NCBI GenBank assembly: GCA_965261985.1
Contig: OZ253490.1
Location: 1,511,947 to 1,575,946, forward strand
Length of the DNA stretch: 64,000 nt
DNA from: Alphaproteobacteria bacterium
Lineage (GTDB): Bacteria > Pseudomonadota > Alphaproteobacteria > Bin95
Direction of reading: 5' to 3'
The position numbers and the translations under genes were made by a program. Positions 3,052 to 56,120 of the stretch are shown here, piece by piece (position 1 is the first letter of the stretch; each line of letters starts with the position of its first letter). The notes under the pieces were generated by a model that saw only the letters and a program-made list of their open reading frames with translations, was not told the origin of the DNA and ran no database searches.

Positions 3052-3585
3052 TCAGGCCTCCGGAAATCCGGGCTCGCGGGTTCGGCGTCCGGCGAGCCGG
3101 CCTTCGTCGTCGATGAGCGCGACGCGCGCCGGACGGTTCTCTCCCCACCGCCACATCACGAGGTTGAGGTCGTCGGCGCCCGCCCCGGCGGCAAAACTCC
3201 GGACCCGCATGCCCGCATAGCCTGCCGCGATCAGGCGGTCGGCCAGGGCCTGCGATGCCGGGACCTGGCCGGCAAGCATCTCCGCTTCCCAGGAGGTGCA
3301 GGCCAGGTCGGACTCCGTCACGCCCAGCGAACGGCGTTCTGCCTCGTCCAGCGCGTCGAAGACAGGATCGGCATCGACTTCATAGGCGCAAAGCGTGAGC
3401 GGCTGCATCGGTCGGCCGAGCGGCTCCGCTTCGCGTATGGCGGTCAACGGAGCCAGCGAGGTGTAATGCGCCGGGACGCCGCGCCGGTTGAAGCGCCCGC
3501 CATGGCGGCGTGCACCCTCGCCGGACAGCGGCGACCAGGACCATTGCGGATTGTGCGCCCGGTAAACCAGCCCCCGGAAGCGCAT
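3052..3585 (-). CDS. RES-domain toxin of an RES-Xre type II toxin-antitoxin pair
   Basis: 177 aa with RES-domain hallmarks (Arg/Glu/Ser core, GGRFNRRGVPAHYTS). Sits immediately downstream of a DUF2384/Xre-type antitoxin gene on the same strand. Confidence 0.7.
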   Translation of the reverse strand: MRFRGLVYRAHNPQWSWSPLSGEGARRHGGRFNRRGVPAHYTSLAPLTAIREAEPLGRPMQPLTLCAYEVDADPVFDALDEAERRSLGVTESDLACTSWEAEMLAGQVPASQALADRLIAAGYAGMRVRSFAAGAGADDLNLVMWRWGENRPARVALIDDEGRLAGRRTREPGFPEA

Positions 3586-3600
3586 CAGGCGTGGGCAGCC

Positions 3601-3951
3601 TCAGGCATAGCCGCCTGCCATGATCCGGTCGAGATAGGCATGCACATGGTCGGCTTTGCCTTCGCGCACCAGCAGGTCGGACGTGGCGCCGCCGAATCCC
3701 GGCAGGGGCTCGGCCCGAAACCAGGCATAGGCTGCGAGCGGCGATCCGGTCTGGGCCTCAACGCGGTTCAGGATCTCCAGCATCTGGCGCAACCGGGTCT
3801 GCGTCTTCCGCGCCCGCACCCGCGAGGCGCGCGAAAAGGCATCTTTGCCGAGCCCCAGCGTGCCGGCGATCTCGGACCGGGTGGTGCGCAGCGCCTCGGC
3901 GATAAGCGCCGGAGAAAATGCCCGATCCTCGATGAATTCCTGAAATTGCAC
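3601..3951 (-). CDS. Xre/MbcA/ParS-like antitoxin (DUF2384) partner of the RES toxin
   Basis: 116-aa ORF 15 bp upstream of the RES gene. Its C-terminal DUF2384-like region fits the canonical antitoxin-then-toxin order. Confidence 0.6.
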   Translation of the reverse strand: MQFQEFIEDRAFSPALIAEALRTTRSEIAGTLGLGKDAFSRASRVRARKTQTRLRQMLEILNRVEAQTGSPLAAYAWFRAEPLPGFGGATSDLLVREGKADHVHAYLDRIMAGGYA

Positions 3952-4051
3952 GATACAACCTCACATTTCCTGACGCATTTTAGTGCGACAAAAGATGTTT
4001 TTCCAGAGGCGGCGTATGGCTTGCCGGAAATGGTGTTGCCGCTTCCGGCTT

Positions 4052-4753
4052 TCAGGCCTCCTTGCCGTAGCGGTGCAGTCCGCGGCCTTCGGTCTTGAGC
4101 CAGCGTTCGGCGGCGTCGGTTTCCGGGCAGAGGCGGCGGCAGAGGCTCCAGAAGCGGGGGCTGTGGTTCATCTCGCGGAGATGCGCCACCTCATGCGCGG
4201 CCAGATAGTCCAGCACGAAGGGCGGAGCCATGACCGCGCGCCAGGAGAAATTCAGCCGTCCGGCGGCGCTGGCGCTGCCCCAGCGCGTCTTCTGGTCCCG
4301 GATGACGATGCCGCGCGGCTGCACGCCGAGCGCGGCGGCATGGCGGGCAACGGCTTCCTCGAAGGCGCGCCGCGCTTCATGCCGCAACCAGCCTTCCACC
4401 AGCCGGGAGCACCCGGCCGGGCTCGCCAGCAGGATGCGGTCGTCCTCAAGCCTGAGCGGGTCCCGGAGCGCCGGGTCGAGGCGGATCCGGCGCGGACGGC
4501 CTCGAAACGGGACGGTCTCGCCGGGCTCGAACGGCACCGGGGCCGGCGTTTCCTGCAACCGGCCCGCCACCCATTCGCCGCGGCTCTCGAGGAACGCGAG
4601 GCCGGTCGCCTCGCTCGCGCCCGGTGGCAGCGTCAGACGGACCTCGCCGCCCCGGATGCTGAGCGAGATGCACCGTGCGCGCGGATTGCGGCGCACGGCG
4701 ACCCGGACCTCGCGGCCGCCGAGCCGGACCTGCCTAAAGCGCCCAGTCGACAA
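4052..4753 (-). CDS. M48-family / YgjP-like (DUF45) metal-dependent hydrolase
   Basis: 233 aa with an [16 protein letters not shown] zinc-binding HExxH motif typical of YgjP/SprT-like proteins. Confidence 0.7.
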
Positions 4754-5174
4754 TATGGCGTTCCAGGTCTTCCTGGTCGCTGCCGATCTCGTCCTCCGAG
4801 ATCACCTTGCCGCGCACGGACATCTGCGCCAGATGCACGGTTTCCGGGTCTCCCGAGACCAAGGGGTGCCACCAGTAGAGGTCCTTGCCCTCATGCAGCA
4901 GGCGGTAGGCGCAGCTCGACGGCATCCAGGCGATCTCGGCGACATTGCGCGGCGAGAGCTGGATGCAGTCCGGCACGCGGGCCTTGCGGTTGGGGTAGTC
5001 GGTGCAGCGGCAGCTTTCGGAGTCGAGCAGCCGGCAGGTGACGCAGGTCGGCTCGATCTCGCCCGTATCCGCCCATTCGATCTTGAGCAGGCAGCATTTG
5101 CCGCAGCCGTCGCAGAGCGACTCCCACTCTTCCGGCGTCATCTCGTCCAGCCGCTTCTCGCGCCAGAACGTCAT
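4734..5174 (-). CDS. YcgN-family cysteine-cluster protein (UPF0260)
   Basis: 146-aa product [31 protein letters not shown]... with the conserved Cys cluster. Start ATG at 5174. The 352-aa ORF upstream of it is non-coding. Confidence 0.75.
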
Positions 5175-45095: not shown

Positions 45096-45206
45096 TTACA
45101 GGAAATATCGGCGCAAGCACGCCGCGAGTCCTTCGGCAAGGACGAGCGCGCTTCGTTCCGCGCCGCCGCCGGTCAGGCTGCGCAGCATCAGGCCGATATG
45201 GGCCAT
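45096..45206 (-). pseudogene. truncated N-terminal remnant of a glycosyltransferase family 4 (GT4) glycosyltransferase
   Basis: MAHIGLMLRSLTGGGAERSALVLAEGL parallels the N-terminus of the GT4 at 39926 (MPHIAMVIPSLAGGGAERTALRVAGGL) and stops after 36 codons. Confidence 0.5.
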
Positions 45207-45878
45207 TTCGAGGTCCGACCCCGCCGGGAGTGAAGCTGCGGTTATACAGCAAGCGGTCGGCGGTCGCGGCATCTTCGCCAGAGGCGGCGAGGCGCAATTG
45301 GAAAAATTTCTGTTTTGTTCTCCTGGGGGACTTGATTCTGGAAATTCTGTGGTAGCATGAATCAGGAGCAAGCGGTGTCCGGACGCCGCTTCGCCTGGCG
45401 CCGGCGCGAAAAACACCCAATGGAACAGACAGGAGACGTGTGCCTTGCGCTTGCCCGCGCGCGGGCAATCAGGCGCGCAAAGCCGCGCCGGCGCGAACGC
45501 AGGCGCACGCGCACATGCAATACGCGCGAAAAAGGGCGCTTCCCCGGAACCCGGCGGCGGCGCGAACCGGGCGACCGGGGCGTGGCGGACGGGGGCAGTT
45601 ATCTGCGGGACGGCCGAAGGTCGCGCCATCTTCCCGGCGGCCGCAAGGTGCCATACGAAAAAATTATAAAACACAAAAGAAAACGGTATTGGCTCTTATC
45701 CAGTGCCGTTGCCAGATTGCTGTTGTCCGGTTCGGAGTTTGCCGGTTCCGGGCGAACGGGGTCGAAAACGACGGCGTAACGCCGAAGAGAGGGAAAAGTG
45801 GACGTTCCGAAACAGGCGGCAAACCCCGGGAAGGCACACAACCGGGATGCCGAAAACCGGAAGAGAGGCCGCCGCGCC

Positions 45879-45986
45879 ATGGCGGCTGCGGGGCTCGCGC
45901 CGGCCGTATTGGCCGTGGCGGTCTTCGCGCTCACCGCCGGCCCGGAGCAGGCGCACGCCTGCTTCCTCGGCATCCCCTGCCGGTAG
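45879..45986 (+). CDS. small ORF: signal-peptide-like segment plus an 8-aa Cys-containing tail (MAAAGLAPAVLAVAVFALTAGPEQAHA|CFLGIPCR)
   Basis: GAAGAGAGG Shine-Dalgarno site upstream of the ATG at 45879. An alternative GTG start at 45798 adds a basic N-terminal region ending in RKRGRR. Followed by two hairpins, including a canonical intrinsic terminator. Confidence 0.35.
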   Translation: MAAAGLAPAVLAVAVFALTAGPEQAHACFLGIPCR

Positions 45987-46012
45987 CGGTTTCCTCCCCT
46001 GCTACCGGCAAC

Positions 46013-46051
46013 GCAGCCGGCGGGCCCCCCACCCGCCGGCTGCATTCTTTT
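46013..46051 (+). terminator. Rho-independent terminator
   Basis: GCAGCCGGCGGG-CCCCCCA-CCCGCCGGCTGC forms a perfect 12-bp GC stem followed by ATTCTTTT. It is preceded by a second hairpin (CCGGTAGC...GCTACCGG, 45980-46008) spanning the small-ORF stop. Confidence 0.7.
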
Positions 46052-46276
46052 GCGCGGAGGGCTGCCGCCTCCTCCGAAGCTCCTCGCCCCGCTTGCGGGG
46101 AGAGGCCGGGCGAGGGGCAGCGGTGCGGACCTCGACGCGGAGGATTGCGTGGTAAACCTGTTACGGGAGGCGGCGTCCGGCGCCGCGGGACGGCATGGGC
46201 AGCGGTTTTCGGAAAAGCAGGGGAAGGCCCGTCCGGCGGCCGGGGCGCAGGGGGCCTCATGACAAAACATGACATT

Positions 46277-47902
46277 TCGTAACTGCCCAGGATGTTGGTC
46301 GTAGGGGCGTTGGCGCCTGGGGTAGTTTCAGGCGTATCGGATTTCGTCGATGAAGCTGCGAGGCGACCCCATCAGGGTGTTGAGGACGTCCCGGCCCTGC
46401 TTTTGAGCGGTGGCGATGATTGTGCGCAGTATGGCGAAGTCGTCTGCGCCGCTTCGGGAGCGGAAGCCTCCGGAGATTTTCTGGCGCAGTTTCATCATGC
46501 GCAGGTCGCGCTCGGCCTCATTATTGGTGAAGGGGACCTGTGGGTCGGTCAGGAAGCGCAGGGTCTCGTCCCGGCGCTCATGCAGGCGCAAAGCGAGGTT
46601 GTGACCCTTGCGCCGCCTCGGGGCCCCGCGCCGGCCGGGCGAGGAGAGCGGCGGCTGGTTCTCATGGAACGCCATCGCCTCGACAAGCAGCCGGTCGTAG
46701 CCGCGCACCAGACGCGCCAACAAACGCCCCGGAACGGCCATGTCCCGCTCCCGCGCCAGCCGCGCCACGCGCCGGGCCCGAAGCAGATGACGCTGCATGC
46801 GCCGGGCCCAGTCCTCCTTGTCGAACTCCACAAGCGCCTGCAACTCCCGAAGGTGATGCGCGTTGCAAAGCGCATGCTCCACACCCGCCATCGGCCAGTA
46901 GCATTGCCAGTGGTCGTGCACTGCGACCCCGGACACCCCCGCAGGCACGGCGCCGCGCCGCTCGCTCACCCGATACGCCGCCAGCAAGAGCCTGCCCCGG
47001 ACCCGATCCGGGGATGTGCAGATCACATGGAGCCACCGCGTGCGTGCGCCAATGCGAAGTCCGGTCTCGTCCAGATGCTTCACACGCGCCCCGACCGCCG
47101 CAAGCTCCTCTATATGCCCGCCCGCAGCCTGAAAACGCTCCGCCGCACGACGGCTCATCGACGCCAGCGTCGCAGGCGACACGCGCGCTCCGAACAAAAC
47201 CCCCAGAACCTCCGACAGCCGGCGCTCCGGAAGGAACTGCGCATGACGGAGCCATACCGCAACGCCCGAAAGACGAGGGCCATACTGAACCGGACCCGAT
47301 ACGCCATCGGGAAACGCCGCCCGCGTCACAGCCCCGCAACGCCCGCAGCGACACGCATGGCCGCGATGCTCCGTCACTTCCAAAGGACGCGGCTCAGGAA
47401 GGTCGAATACCTGACGCGCTACCGGCGCGCCCACAAAAGACGCTCCCAAAAGAGACGCCCCGCAGCCCCCGCACGCCGCTGGAACATGGTCCTTCACACG
47501 GTCCGGGCTCGCCGTCCGGCACAGCGTCCGGCCCTTGTGGCCCGGCTGACCGCCCGGCTTGCGATCCGTCTTGCCACGAAGGCTCTGTGTGCGGCGCTCA
47601 GACGACGGCTTCTTCAAACCGTCGCTCGAAGGAGGCTTGCCGCTATTGCCGCTGTTCAGACCGAGACGGCGCTCCAGCTCACCTATCCGCTCCCGAAACC
47701 GCGCGGTCTCCTCCCGAAGCGAGGCGTTCTCCTCCCGAAGCCAAGCGGTCTCCAACTCAAGACGCGCGATCTTCTGTCCGGAAGTCTCGGACCCGGCCAC
47801 CCTCAATGGGTCAAACGGCTCGGAACGACTCATCCAAAGGTTGACTCATTTTTCGTTCCCACCGTCAACCCCATAACCAAATCTGACATCCTGGGCAGTT
47901 AC
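46277..47902 (-). mobile_element. IS66-family insertion sequence, single-ORF (ISBst12-like) type
   Basis: Perfect 17-19-bp terminal inverted repeats GTAACTGCCCAGGATGT begin with the IS66-typical GTAA. The only internal ORF is a TnpC-like transposase. The element is flanked by an 18-bp direct repeat GACAAAACATGACATTTC. Confidence 0.8.
46328..47833 (-). CDS. IS66-family transposase (TnpC-like)
   Basis: 501 aa with an N-terminal leucine-zipper-like region, a CxxC...CxxC zinc-finger region and an IS66 transposase core. Confidence 0.85.
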   Translation of the reverse strand: MSRSEPFDPLRVAGSETSGQKIARLELETAWLREENASLREETARFRERIGELERRLGLNSGNSGKPPSSDGLKKPSSERRTQSLRGKTDRKPGGQPGHKGRTLCRTASPDRVKDHVPAACGGCGASLLGASFVGAPVARQVFDLPEPRPLEVTEHRGHACRCGRCGAVTRAAFPDGVSGPVQYGPRLSGVAVWLRHAQFLPERRLSEVLGVLFGARVSPATLASMSRRAAERFQAAGGHIEELAAVGARVKHLDETGLRIGARTRWLHVICTSPDRVRGRLLLAAYRVSERRGAVPAGVSGVAVHDHWQCYWPMAGVEHALCNAHHLRELQALVEFDKEDWARRMQRHLLRARRVARLARERDMAVPGRLLARLVRGYDRLLVEAMAFHENQPPLSSPGRRGAPRRRKGHNLALRLHERRDETLRFLTDPQVPFTNNEAERDLRMMKLRQKISGGFRSRSGADDFAILRTIIATAQKQGRDVLNTLMGSPRSFIDEIRYA

Positions 47903-48062
47903 GACAAAACATGACATTTCATGACATGTCGCGACCGTCCCGGCCCGACGGCGGGAGGGGGAAAAGAGGAGCGGCAGCGACGGCGGGGCGCAGACCATGA
48001 CACGAGTGAGGAATCCGGGCTAAAATCGCGCCTTGTTTCCACAGCAGCCGGGGAGGAAGCGC

Positions 48063-49760
48063 ATGGCAGACGACCGGCATCCGTGGCTCGCGAGCTACCC
48101 CGAGAACATAAGCTGGGACGCGGAGATTCCCGAGGGACCGCTCTTCGCAATCCTGGACGACTCCGTCCGTCGCTTCCCGACCCATGAGGCCATGGACTTC
48201 CTGGGCCGGACCTGGAGCTATGCCGAGCTCGGCGCCATGGTGGACCGCGCCGCCGCCGGGTTCCGTTCCCTCGGCGTGGACAAGGGCGTCAAGGTGGGGC
48301 TGTTCCTGCCGAACTGCCCGCAATTCGTCGTTGCCTATTTCGGCATCCTCAAGGCCGGCGGCACGGTGGTGAACTACAGCCCGCTCTATTCGGAGGAGGA
48401 ACTCGCCTACCAGATCGAGGACTCCGAGACCGACATCATGGTGACGCTCGGCCTGGCCGCGCTCTATCCCAAGATGGCGGCGCTGCTGGCGCGCACGCGC
48501 ATCCGCAAGCTGGTCGTCGGCCAGCTCCAGGACGTGCTGCCCTTCCCGAAGAACCTGCTCTTCCCGCTGTTGAAGCGCAGCGAGATTGCGAAGGTGCCGG
48601 ACGACGGCGACCATGTGCCCTTCCGCCGGCTGCTCGACAATGACGGCCTCCGCGAGCCGCCGGAGATCGACCCGCGCGAGGACATTGCGGTGTTCCAGTA
48701 TACCGGCGGCACGACCGGGGTTCCCAAGGGCGCGATGCTGAGCCACGCGAACCTCCACGCCAACATCCACCAGGCGCTGCAATGGAACCCGACGCTGGAG
48801 CCCGGCAGGGAACGCATGATGGGCGTGCTGCCGTTCTTCCATGTGTTCGCGATGACGGTGGTGATGAACTTCACCATCGCCATCGGCGGCTCCATCGTCA
48901 TGCGCCCGCGCTTCGAGCTCGACCCGGTGCTCCAGGACATCACGAAGAAGAAGCCGACGCTGTTTCCGGGCGTGCCGACCATGTACACGGCCATCGTGAA
49001 CCACCCGAAGCTCGACAGCTTCGACCTCACCTCGATCAAGACCTGCATGTCGGGCGGCGCGCCCTTGCCGGTGGAGATCAAGCGGCGCTTCGAGGAGCTT
49101 TCGGGTTGCAAGCTGGTCGAGGGCTACGGGCTGACCGAATCCGCGCCGATCGCCGCCTCCAACCCCTTCGAGGGCGTCAACAAGGAAGGCTCGGTCGGCG
49201 TTCCGGTGCCGGGCACGACGATCACGATCGTGGACAAGGAGGACCCCCTGAAGATCCTGCCGCAGGGCGAGGACGGCGAGATCTGCATCTCCGGCCCGCA
49301 GGTGATGAAGGGCTACTGGCGCCGGGAGGACGCGACGGCCGAGGCCATTGTCGAGGGCCGGCTGCGCACGGGCGATGTCGGGCACCTGGACGAGGACGGC
49401 TATGTGTTCATCATCGACCGCAAGAAGGACCTCGTGCTGGTGAGCGGCTTCAACGTCTTCCCGCGCAATGTCGAGGAAGCGATCTATCGCCATCCCGCCG
49501 TCGAGGAGGTCACCGTCATCGGCATTCCGGACGACTATACCGGCGAGGCGGTGAAGGCGTTCGTCAAGCTCGGCGAGGGCGCGGCGCTGGAGGCCGAGGA
49601 GCTGCTCGCCTTCCTCCGGGACAAGCTCGGCCGCCACGAGGCCCCGAAACATATCGAGTTCCGCGACGAGCTGCCCAAGACGATGATCGGCAAGCTCTCC
49701 AAGAAGGAGCTGGTCGCGGAAGAAGCGGCCAGGCGGGCAGCGGCGGAAACGGCGTCCTGA
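48063..49760 (+). CDS. long-chain-fatty-acid--CoA ligase (AMP-dependent synthetase/ligase)
   Basis: YTGGTTGVPKGAMLSH AMP-binding motif and GYGLTE. GGGGAGGAAG ribosome-binding site. 565 aa. Confidence 0.85.
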   Translation: MADDRHPWLASYPENISWDAEIPEGPLFAILDDSVRRFPTHEAMDFLGRTWSYAELGAMVDRAAAGFRSLGVDKGVKVGLFLPNCPQFVVAYFGILKAGGTVVNYSPLYSEEELAYQIEDSETDIMVTLGLAALYPKMAALLARTRIRKLVVGQLQDVLPFPKNLLFPLLKRSEIAKVPDDGDHVPFRRLLDNDGLREPPEIDPREDIAVFQYTGGTTGVPKGAMLSHANLHANIHQALQWNPTLEPGRERMMGVLPFFHVFAMTVVMNFTIAIGGSIVMRPRFELDPVLQDITKKKPTLFPGVPTMYTAIVNHPKLDSFDLTSIKTCMSGGAPLPVEIKRRFEELSGCKLVEGYGLTESAPIAASNPFEGVNKEGSVGVPVPGTTITIVDKEDPLKILPQGEDGEICISGPQVMKGYWRREDATAEAIVEGRLRTGDVGHLDEDGYVFIIDRKKDLVLVSGFNVFPRNVEEAIYRHPAVEEVTVIGIPDDYTGEAVKAFVKLGEGAALEAEELLAFLRDKLGRHEAPKHIEFRDELPKTMIGKLSKKELVAEEAARRAAAETAS

Positions 49761-55470: not shown

Positions 55471-55830
55471 CTTGACCCCTGTAAAACCGTGGTAGGATGG
55501 GACAGGAGGAAGCGGCATCCGGAGGCCGCTTCGTCTCCCGCTTCGCGCCGGCGCGAAAAAACCCCAAAGGAACGGACGGGAGACGTGCGCCCTGCGCTTG
55601 GCTCGCGCGCGCAATCAGGCGCGCGAACCGCGCCGGCGCGAACGCGGGCGCGCGCGCCCATGCGATACGCGCGAAAAAGGGACGCGCCGCAGGCAAGCCG
55701 GCGGCGGTGCGAACGGAACGAAACGCGACGGAGGAACGACATGCGGGATGGAGACAAGCGGACCTCGGACGAGGTCGGTGGAGGCGGGTGTGTCCCGGCG
55801 GAACATGACACATCATGACATTTCATGACG
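55471..55830 (+). repeat. copy B of the dispersed repeat family (short variant) with its own CTTGAC-N17-TAGGAT promoter-like motif
   Basis: 5' hairpin AAGCGGCATCCGGAGGCCGCTT, GC palindromes (TTCGCGCCGGCGCGAA) and a 3' ATGACA x3 at 10-bp spacing (55805-55830). Confidence 0.7.
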
Positions 55831-56120
55831 TTTTCGGGTGTCTCCTCCGGGAGCCGGCGGATGGCGGCCGCTTACTGCCCGGCTGAGCGCTCGGGGGCGG
55901 GGCTGCTTCGTCTCCCGCCTCGCGCCGGCGCGAAACGGTCATGCGATACGCGCGAAGAAGGGGCGCACTGCCGGGAAGCCGGCGGCAGCGCGAACGGCAC
56001 GAAACGCGATGGAGGAACGACATGCGGCATGCAGACGAACGGCGCTCCGGCGAGGCCGGCGGCGGCAGGCGGCGCGCGACGGGTCATGACATCGCATGAC
56101 AGAACATGACATTTCGCGAC
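55831..56120 (+). repeat. copy C of the dispersed repeat family (tandem to B, 5'-truncated/divergent)
   Basis: Shares CGCGAA-rich core segments with B and ends with ATGACA x3 at 10-bp spacing (56086-56111). Confidence 0.6.

Follow-up and report, generated by a model that had tools for sequence, protein, structure and literature searches.

The 64,000-nucleotide window analysed here (part of contig OZ253490.1 from an alphaproteobacterium) carries a 1624-bp insertion sequence (IS), assigned to the IS66 family by its protein matches, which has split a short array of ATGACA hexamers in front of a fadD-like gene and is flanked by identical 18-bp direct repeats. Comparison with other copies and with related elements strongly supports the conclusion that the element targets phased ATGACA arrays at one fixed register. 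Its normal target duplication is 8 bp, and the 18 bp seen in the window is not a property of the element. What is new is an IS66-family clade strictly specific for a phased direct-repeat array, together with one duplication that is longer by one repeat period. The evidence for targeting is robust. Of the 18-bp event there is one instance only, for which we infer a one-step origin.

Insertion of the element into phased ATGACA arrays

Nine contigs from other metagenome assemblies encode a transposase identical to that of the window element (501 aa), and another nine encode a variant that belongs to the same 90% cluster. The loci with near-identical copies all come from such assemblies and are cited below by their numbers (L001 and so on). 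Both ends were recovered for 13 near-identical copies including that of the window, and one end only for a further copy at L186. IS copies at L001 to L004 were 99.8-99.9% identical to the window element over 1624 bp, and further 1624-bp copies at L179 to L187 encoded the 501-aa variant.

Exact 8-bp duplications inside an ATGACA/TGTCAT array flanked the copies at L002 (GAAATGTC), L004 (GTTCTGTC), L181 (GACACTTC), L183 (GACAAAAC) and L184 (GGAATGTC). Two copies had exact 8-bp duplications in unrelated, non-array sequence (L182, CAAAAGAT; L185, CTCCAGAC), and the flanks of L187 matched at 7 of 8 duplicated positions. At L001, L179 and L003-2 the array lay on both sides of the element with no duplication, and L180 had neither an array-type flank nor a duplication. 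The window copy was the sole one of the 13 with an 18-bp repeat. Relatives whose transposases are 88% and 86% identical (elements of 1557 and 1588 bp that share the terminal inverted repeat) were inserted in arrays in 4 of 4 cases with 8-bp duplications (GACACTTC at L191 and L193, GACAAAAC at L192 and GACATATC at L194). An 80% relative from a Joint Genome Institute (JGI) metagenome (L095) was embedded in arrays, and a 75% relative in the alphaproteobacterial metagenome-assembled genome (MAG) OY730441.1 (L008) was an array insertion with an 8-bp duplication. In total, exact 8-bp duplications were found for seven near-identical copies and five relatives.

A preliminary description of the window had left two explanations for the 18-bp repeat: either the element makes 18-bp duplications, or it targeted the array and an extra repeat unit was duplicated. 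It had also proposed that the flanks of other copies be measured. With this done, the seven near-identical copies showed 8 bp, the length usual for IS66. An intrinsic 18-bp duplication, for which the window copy alone speaks, is refuted by these seven (L002, L004 and L181-L185) and by the five relatives, among them L191-L194, and we give it practically no probability. The second explanation gained strong support from the distribution of the insertions. Both flanks were in arrays for 10 of the 13 near-identical copies, the window included. Arrays account for about 0.14% of the window; if insertion were random, at least 10 of 13 copies would fall in arrays with a probability of about 1e-26.

The register of insertion was constant. 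Aligned in one orientation, all 11 clean array insertions, relatives included, read CAT^GACANWWC^ATG. Positions −3 to +3 and +7 were invariant among them, and a downstream ATGACA was present in 10 of the 11. The chance of the same 1-of-10 register in 11 insertions is about 1e-10. The duplicated 8-mer was always the stretch between two CATG tetranucleotides spaced 10 bp apart. This CATG-N6-CATG frame is palindromic, which fits the finding that insertions occur in both orientations.

Five ATGACA-N4-ATGACA pairs were counted in the window versus none in shuffled sequences; they lie in the flanks of the IS and in two further arrays on the + strand at 55805-55830 (copy B, a potential target of like kind) and 56086-56115 (copy C). 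Both of these arrays are free of the IS, as are the orthologous fadD sites at L092-L094. The fact that IS-free arrays exist indicates that the arrays are the host target and not part of the element. We had considered, from the flanks at L003-1, that the arrays might belong to the IS as longer inverted repeats. The idea was rejected on the same ground, and those flanks were recognised as two inverted host modules.

Two loci showed compound arrangements. At L003, positions 1126-2732 hold a second isoform of 1607 bp with an 83% identical transposase, located between two inverted modules of an array and its preceding repeated unit (880-1125 and 2733-2931), of which the first 43 nt on each side form a perfect inverted repeat. 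A 1624-bp copy is located 199 bp away from this isoform, and two DDE_Tnp_1 transposase genes belong to the same cluster. At L008, positions 3178-5025 contain a full-length 1567-bp IS with a frameshifted transposase and a 263-bp MITE-like element (MITE, miniature inverted-repeat transposable element) within adjacent units of one array. The two have matching terminal repeats and an 8-bp duplication each (GACATTTC and GACACTTC).

More distant relatives were sought in two scans. In metagenomes, the transposase scan retrieved chiefly relatives of 50-60% identity, which lay on short contigs and often lacked a recognisable duplication. Their inverted repeats were alike (GTAACTGCCCAGGT...), and the recognisable duplications were 8 bp long, several of them AT-rich, with no common target; no ATGACA targeting was seen among these 50-60% relatives outside the clade. 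The matches listed in the scan of a genome collection with the 17-mer inverted repeat were mostly due to chance, and of these only the alphaproteobacterial MAG loci were informative. MAG MFD00962.bin.2.1 carries a 1510-bp IS with an identical 17-bp inverted repeat and a transposase of 54% identity. Among the matches listed, all nine copies (L032, L043, L048, L055, L060, L072, L079, L082 and L083) were inserted in the short repeat ...GTTCGTTCTGCCAAAAT..., and in seven of the nine GTTCTGCC was duplicated as an exact 8-mer, preceded by GAGTTC or TAGTTC; at L032 and L043 the GTTCTGCC match was shifted by 1 nt.

This branch thus seems to be characterised by repeat targeting that is strict yet divergent. 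The specificity is presumably encoded in the transposase, and we infer that the CATG frame is read by the transposase itself. The sister clade with the same ends and another strict target suggests that the transposase contains a module for reading its target. Targeting might instead be indirect, with a host or module protein on the phased ATGACA sites positioning the transposase, or with bent array DNA doing so. This would concern the recognition step only, and the spacing of protomers rather than direct reading of DNA would set the cuts, including the occasional 18-bp spacing. The copies at L182 and L185, outside arrays in unrelated sequences with 8-bp duplications, indicate that the motif is not strictly required by the transposase, and the 50-60% relatives have 8-bp duplications with no shared consensus. 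Hexamers recurring every 10 bp also share one face of the helix, as at tandem response-regulator sites. However, no candidate binding protein was identified, and the invariant CAT^GACA...C^ATG frame, used in either orientation, would be expected if a transposase dimer read the DNA directly and symmetrically. The 54% relative, with the same inverted repeats and an equally strict but different target, fits transposase-encoded specificity as well. We consider indirect targeting rather unlikely.

Origin of the 18-bp repeat at the fadD array

The left copy of the 18-bp direct repeat GACAAAACATGACATTTC (46261-46278, + strand) abuts the left inverted repeat of the IS, and the right copy (47903-47920, + strand) abuts the right one. 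Both 18-mers are perfect and in register. Each consists of the target 8-mer GACAAAAC of unit 1, the dinucleotide AT and the target 8-mer GACATTTC of unit 2. By comparison with the empty site L092, the left part of the split host array (46259-46278, + strand) comprises the units ATGACAAAAC and ATGACATTTC. The right part (47903-47930, + strand) reads (AC)GACAAAAC ATGACATTTC ATGACATGTC and forms a nearly complete three-unit array beside fadD. Removal of the IS and one 18-mer gives ATGACAAAAC ATGACATTTC ATGACATGTC, which is identical to the sequence at the IS-free orthologous site L092. The reconstruction of a three-unit ATGACA module proposed in the preliminary description is thus matched by a real empty site. 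The flanking repeats that it reported exist and its right copy was placed correctly; the left copy had been placed at 46259-46276 and is moved here to 46261-46278.

Three orthologous loci without the IS (L092, L093 and L094) were reached through fadD homologues of 97, 97 and 95% identity. At L092 both flanks are 96.6-97% identical to the window, and the site reads ...CTC ATGACAAAAC ATGACATTTC ATGACATGTC GCGACCGTCC..., so that array and right flank match the window once the IS and a single 18-mer are taken out. The two units of the 18-mer occur once at L094, and at L093 once with an extra unit in front. Directly next to the first unit of the L093 fadD array is a 43-nt fragment (3818-3860) that is 100% identical to IS-internal positions 46311-46353 of the window, in the opposite orientation. 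It looks like a scar left when the element had earlier and independently entered this array and was then deleted.

Because the three orthologous empty sites carry the 18-mer only once, the tandem 18-mer is not pre-existing. A tandem 18-mer would also break the 10-bp phase that all the other arrays show. The preliminary description had held that the repeat would be pre-existing if other copies had 8-bp duplications and the empty site already contained the tandem 18-mer. The first was found; the second was not, since the empty sites of all three related strains have a single 18-mer, and its view of the repeat as insertion-associated holds. A different ancestry is conceivable, namely a pre-existing five-unit array AAAC-TTTC-AAAC-TTTC-TGTC made by a tandem 20-bp duplication, with the IS inserted between units 2 and 3 and an AT lost. 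Junctions of the type unit, IS, next unit do exist (L001 and L179), and arrays range from 3 to 5 units. Against this, the AAAC-TTTC pair was repeated in none of about 25 inspected arrays, the 18-mer is single at the three empty sites, and both a prior 20-bp duplication and an anomalous junction would be required. We judge such an origin very unlikely.

The most economical reading, which we consider probable, is that of one transposition whose two strand transfers lay one repeat period further apart than usual. The DDE transposase normally makes target cuts with an 8-bp stagger. In 10-bp-phased ATGACA-N4 units it strongly prefers the register CAT^GACANWWC^ATG, with duplication of the 8-mer GACANNNC. 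Since the CATG frame comes back with each 10-bp unit, cut positions that are equally legitimate are also available 18 bp apart. Upstream of fadD, one strand would have been cut in the register of unit 1 and the other in that of unit 2, and gap repair would have duplicated 8 + 10 = 18 bp (GACAAAAC-AT-GACATTTC). All 18 bp would then derive from one transposition event. The left junction, with GACATTTC directly before the IS, is of the same type as in L002 and L008, and the right junction, with GACAAAAC directly after the IS, is of the same type as in L183 and L192. Both junctions occur separately in other copies, and each cut is therefore in a legitimate register, in neighbouring units.

Several points weigh against a single transposition. 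There is one 18-bp case among about 12 array insertions with duplications, which makes it a rare event rather than a demonstrated mode, and we know of no biochemical precedent for a DDE transposase that switches between 8- and 18-bp staggers. L001, L179 and perhaps L187 show the opposite anomaly, with neighbouring units flanking the IS and the AT lost. The best explanation for junctions of the L001/L179 type is that ISs in neighbouring units recombined, and recombination thus does reshape array junctions. The strains with empty sites are about 97% identical in their flanks and are not the immediate ancestor, and the junctions are known here from assembled sequence rather than at read level.

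The main rival is a two-step origin, in which ordinary 8-bp insertions at GACATTTC and at GACAAAAC in different chromosome copies or strains were followed by exchange inside the IS, or were joined in an assembly chimera. Arrays are hot spots of insertion, double occupancy of adjacent units is seen in L008 (IS and MITE-like element), and the scar in L093 suggests that the fadD array was struck more than once in the lineage. L001 and L179, perhaps also L187, show the reciprocal junction (unit n, IS, unit n+1) expected of recombining adjacent insertions, and the related loci come from metagenome assemblies. However, two independent alleles of the same array would have to meet. Intrachromosomal recombination of tandem insertions would give the deletion type only and not the 18-bp type, and unequal sister exchange would leave extra IS copies beside the site, where there are none. 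The perfect and in-register state of both 18-mers also speaks against two steps, and we regard this origin as unlikely. Slippage or point mutation from an 8-bp duplication was excluded, because there are three differences between GACATTTC and GACAAAAC and the repeat is broken up by the IS.

Given a single transposition, it is possible, and we propose it tentatively, that each cut is placed by the CATG frame on its own strand. The length of the duplication would then be quantised (8 bp, occasionally 18 bp), and the clade's specificity would be strict yet retargetable to short host repeats (ATGACA arrays here; GTTCTGCC in the 54% relative with the same inverted repeats). The single 18-bp duplication suggests semi-independent, sequence-based positioning of the two cuts, which bears on how transpososomes measure stagger. 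If CATG is indeed read per strand, the clade would be a natural system for studying DDE target recognition coupled to cut spacing. An over-long target site duplication within tandem repeats should in any case not be read as a property of the element.

Family assignment and comparison with known elements

The complete IS occupies positions 46279-47902, with the transposase gene on the − strand, and is bounded by perfect 17-bp inverted repeats (IRs). A motif search located the IR GTAACTGCCCAGGATGT at 46279-46295 (+ strand; the end 3′ of the transposase stop codon) and at 47886-47902 (− strand; the end 5′ of the start codon). These are its only two occurrences in the window, where about 0.05 would be expected by chance even at 3 mismatches. 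The IR starts with 5′-GTAA, a feature of the IS66 family, and is matched at 17 of 17 bp at both ends.

The transposase gene (46328-47833, − strand) encodes a protein with a DUF6444 coiled-coil N-terminus followed by zf-IS66 and DDE_Tnp_IS66 according to Pfam and NCBIfam. PF03050 (DDE_Tnp_IS66) was matched at E=9e-38 over 281 of 284 profile positions. The zf-IS66 domain (PF13005) upstream of the catalytic domain passed marginally (27.9 bits, cutoff 27.3), and the NCBIfam equivalog NF033517 'IS66 family transposase' scored 271 bits against a cutoff of 180. No tnpA or tnpB was found within the 1624 bp, and 46328-47833 was the sole open reading frame (ORF) with a family match. Two antisense ORFs on the + strand, 46292-47914 (540 aa) and 46540-47844 (434 aa), had no Pfam match; they are spurious ORFs typical of 69% GC DNA and not accessory genes. 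A plasmid database held only relatives of less than 48% identity to the transposase, annotated as 'IS66 family transposase'. The element is intact and recently active.

On the evidence of these matches the element is a member of the IS66 family and, having neither tnpA nor tnpB, is not a canonical IS66. Since tnpA and tnpB are absent, its architecture is of the ISBst12 type. The ISBst12 group as defined by ISfinder has a single transposase ORF in an element of about 1.35-1.9 kb. Assignment to this group is based on the single ORF and the size of 1624 bp, the comparison with named members being one of IR similarity to ISDge4 only. Pfam, NCBIfam and the ORF check agree with the preliminary description, which had recognised a lone 501-aa TnpC-like transposase of ISBst12-like architecture. 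Its perfect IRs were also found, with the left one at 46279-46295 instead of 46277-46293 and the length at 1624 instead of 1626 bp.

Like ISBst12 itself and ISDge4 of Deinococcus geothermalis, the element has one transposase ORF, no tnpA or tnpB and a size of about 1.5-1.6 kb, with IRs that begin GTAACTGC and target duplications of 8 bp. An experimentally active member of the group, ISDge4, has the terminal IR GTAACTGCTCAGCA and the 8-bp direct repeat CCTCGATG (PMC12898284). The present clade differs from what is described for that group in that insertion is nearly exclusive to one register of a phased host repeat and the window copy has an 18-bp duplication. Target specificity was unreported for the IS66 family or the ISBst12 group in the literature searchable here. 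With the canonical IS66 and IS679 (tnpA-tnpB-tnpC) it shares a homologous DDE transposase (TnpC), the zinc finger, GTAA ends and the 8-bp duplication, features reportedly described by Han and colleagues in 2001 and by Gourbeyre and colleagues in 2010; it differs from them in lacking tnpA and tnpB, in being shorter and in its DUF6444-type N-terminus.

ISs that target repetitive extragenic palindromes (REPs) are documented in the IS3, IS110, IS4, IS256 and IS5 families (PMC1525189); for IS66 or ISBst12 no such report was found in the searchable literature. The present element resembles the ISs targeting REPs or bacterial interspersed mosaic elements (among them IS1397, ISKpn1, ISPsy8, ISPa11, ISPpu9/10 and ISRm22), nearly all copies of which lie at a fixed point of a short and highly repeated intergenic sequence. 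As in those cases, the large majority of copies were found in one repeat family, at a fixed position, and the repeat occurs independently of the IS. Their targets, however, are palindromic hairpin repeats, whereas the present ones are tandem, 10-bp-phased direct repeats, and duplications quantised by repeat unit are not described there.

The duplication of IS1 is usually 9 bp and occasionally of other lengths. The 18-bp case is likewise a rare departure from the modal stagger, but unlike in IS1 the departure is exactly one period of the target repeat (10 bp) with both cuts in the sequence register. A departure of exactly one period points to cut placement guided by the target sequence rather than to loose spacing. 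Transposition in the IS66 family is poorly characterised, and the clade offers a clean natural set of insertions in one register.

The fadD gene and the unit preceding the arrays

The fadD-like gene (48063-49760, + strand) encodes a long-chain acyl-CoA ligase with AMP-binding and AMP-binding_C domains (Pfam), and its homologues are named long-chain fatty acid--CoA ligase. To judge by the names of its 81% homologues, the organism is related to Defluviicoccus. Look-ups of exact proteins gave no match for the fadD product (565 or 575 aa) or for the product of a 270-aa gene upstream.

The preliminary description had suggested that the insertion rewired fadD, for which the evidence is weak. A candidate sigma-70-like promoter, ATGACA-18-TAAAAT (10 of 12 positions), lies untouched 3′ of the IS at 47997-48026 on the + strand, between IS and fadD. 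It is the sole sigma-70-like site in 45200-48100, and its stretch is near-identical in the IS-free L092 and L093. A strong terminator-like GC-rich hairpin with a T-run (46013-46052, + strand) already stands 5′ of the array and divides it from the promoter and small ORF further upstream. The transposase gene is oriented away from fadD, and the 18-bp duplication leaves an almost complete three-unit array at the gene, the only change being the first AT to AC. We also considered the array as a conserved fadD operator. This was rejected, as a 90% fadD orthologue of another species and synteny has no upstream array. The small ORF (45798-45986) encodes 62 aa with a hydrophobic middle segment and the C-terminus CFLGIPCR, and is kept together with the hairpin in L092 and L093.

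In this lineage the arrays lie at the 3′ end of a conserved unit of about 280 nt, on the same strand. The unit has an AT-rich upstream region, a promoter-like CTTGAC-N17-TAGGAT and several GC-rich hairpins. In the window it is found at 45331-45567 (copy A, + strand, with promoter-like CTTGAT-N17-TAGCAT followed by GC-rich hairpins), at 55471-55740 and, partially, at 55898-56066. Copies elsewhere are at L001 2495-2770, L004 4671-4962 (−), L179 4106-4466, L183 4106-4423, L184 3335-3586 (−) and L186 2035-2427. The unit adjoins most IS insertion sites in the related assemblies, and tandem modules of unit and array are at times about 450 bp apart. Arrays together with the promoter/RNA-like unit are insertion hot spots that shape strain variation in Defluviicoccus-related bacteria. 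Rfam gave no match in the window or in the repeated unit. RNAalifold on 10 copies of the unit predicted stable hairpins with almost no covariation, the copies being too similar. The unit may be an unrecognised family of noncoding RNAs or leaders, or a cassette-like repeat.

A short, poorly conserved ORF often follows the unit and has its stop codon within the array's first unit, where such ORFs close with ...HDTS* or ...HDIA*. The array period of 10 is 1 modulo 3, and three ATGA motifs give a TGA stop with an overlapping ATG in all three + frames (arrays 46259-46278 plus 47921-47930, 55805-55830 and 56086-56115). Conceivably the array might serve to stop translation in all frames at the module boundary. 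Toxin-antitoxin genes (PemK, TacA/acetyltransferase, RelB/YafQ, BrnT/BrnA and PIN) are frequent near the modules and IS sites (L001, L004, L183 and L092-L094), which suggests that the unit-array modules lie in variable, island-like intergenic regions.

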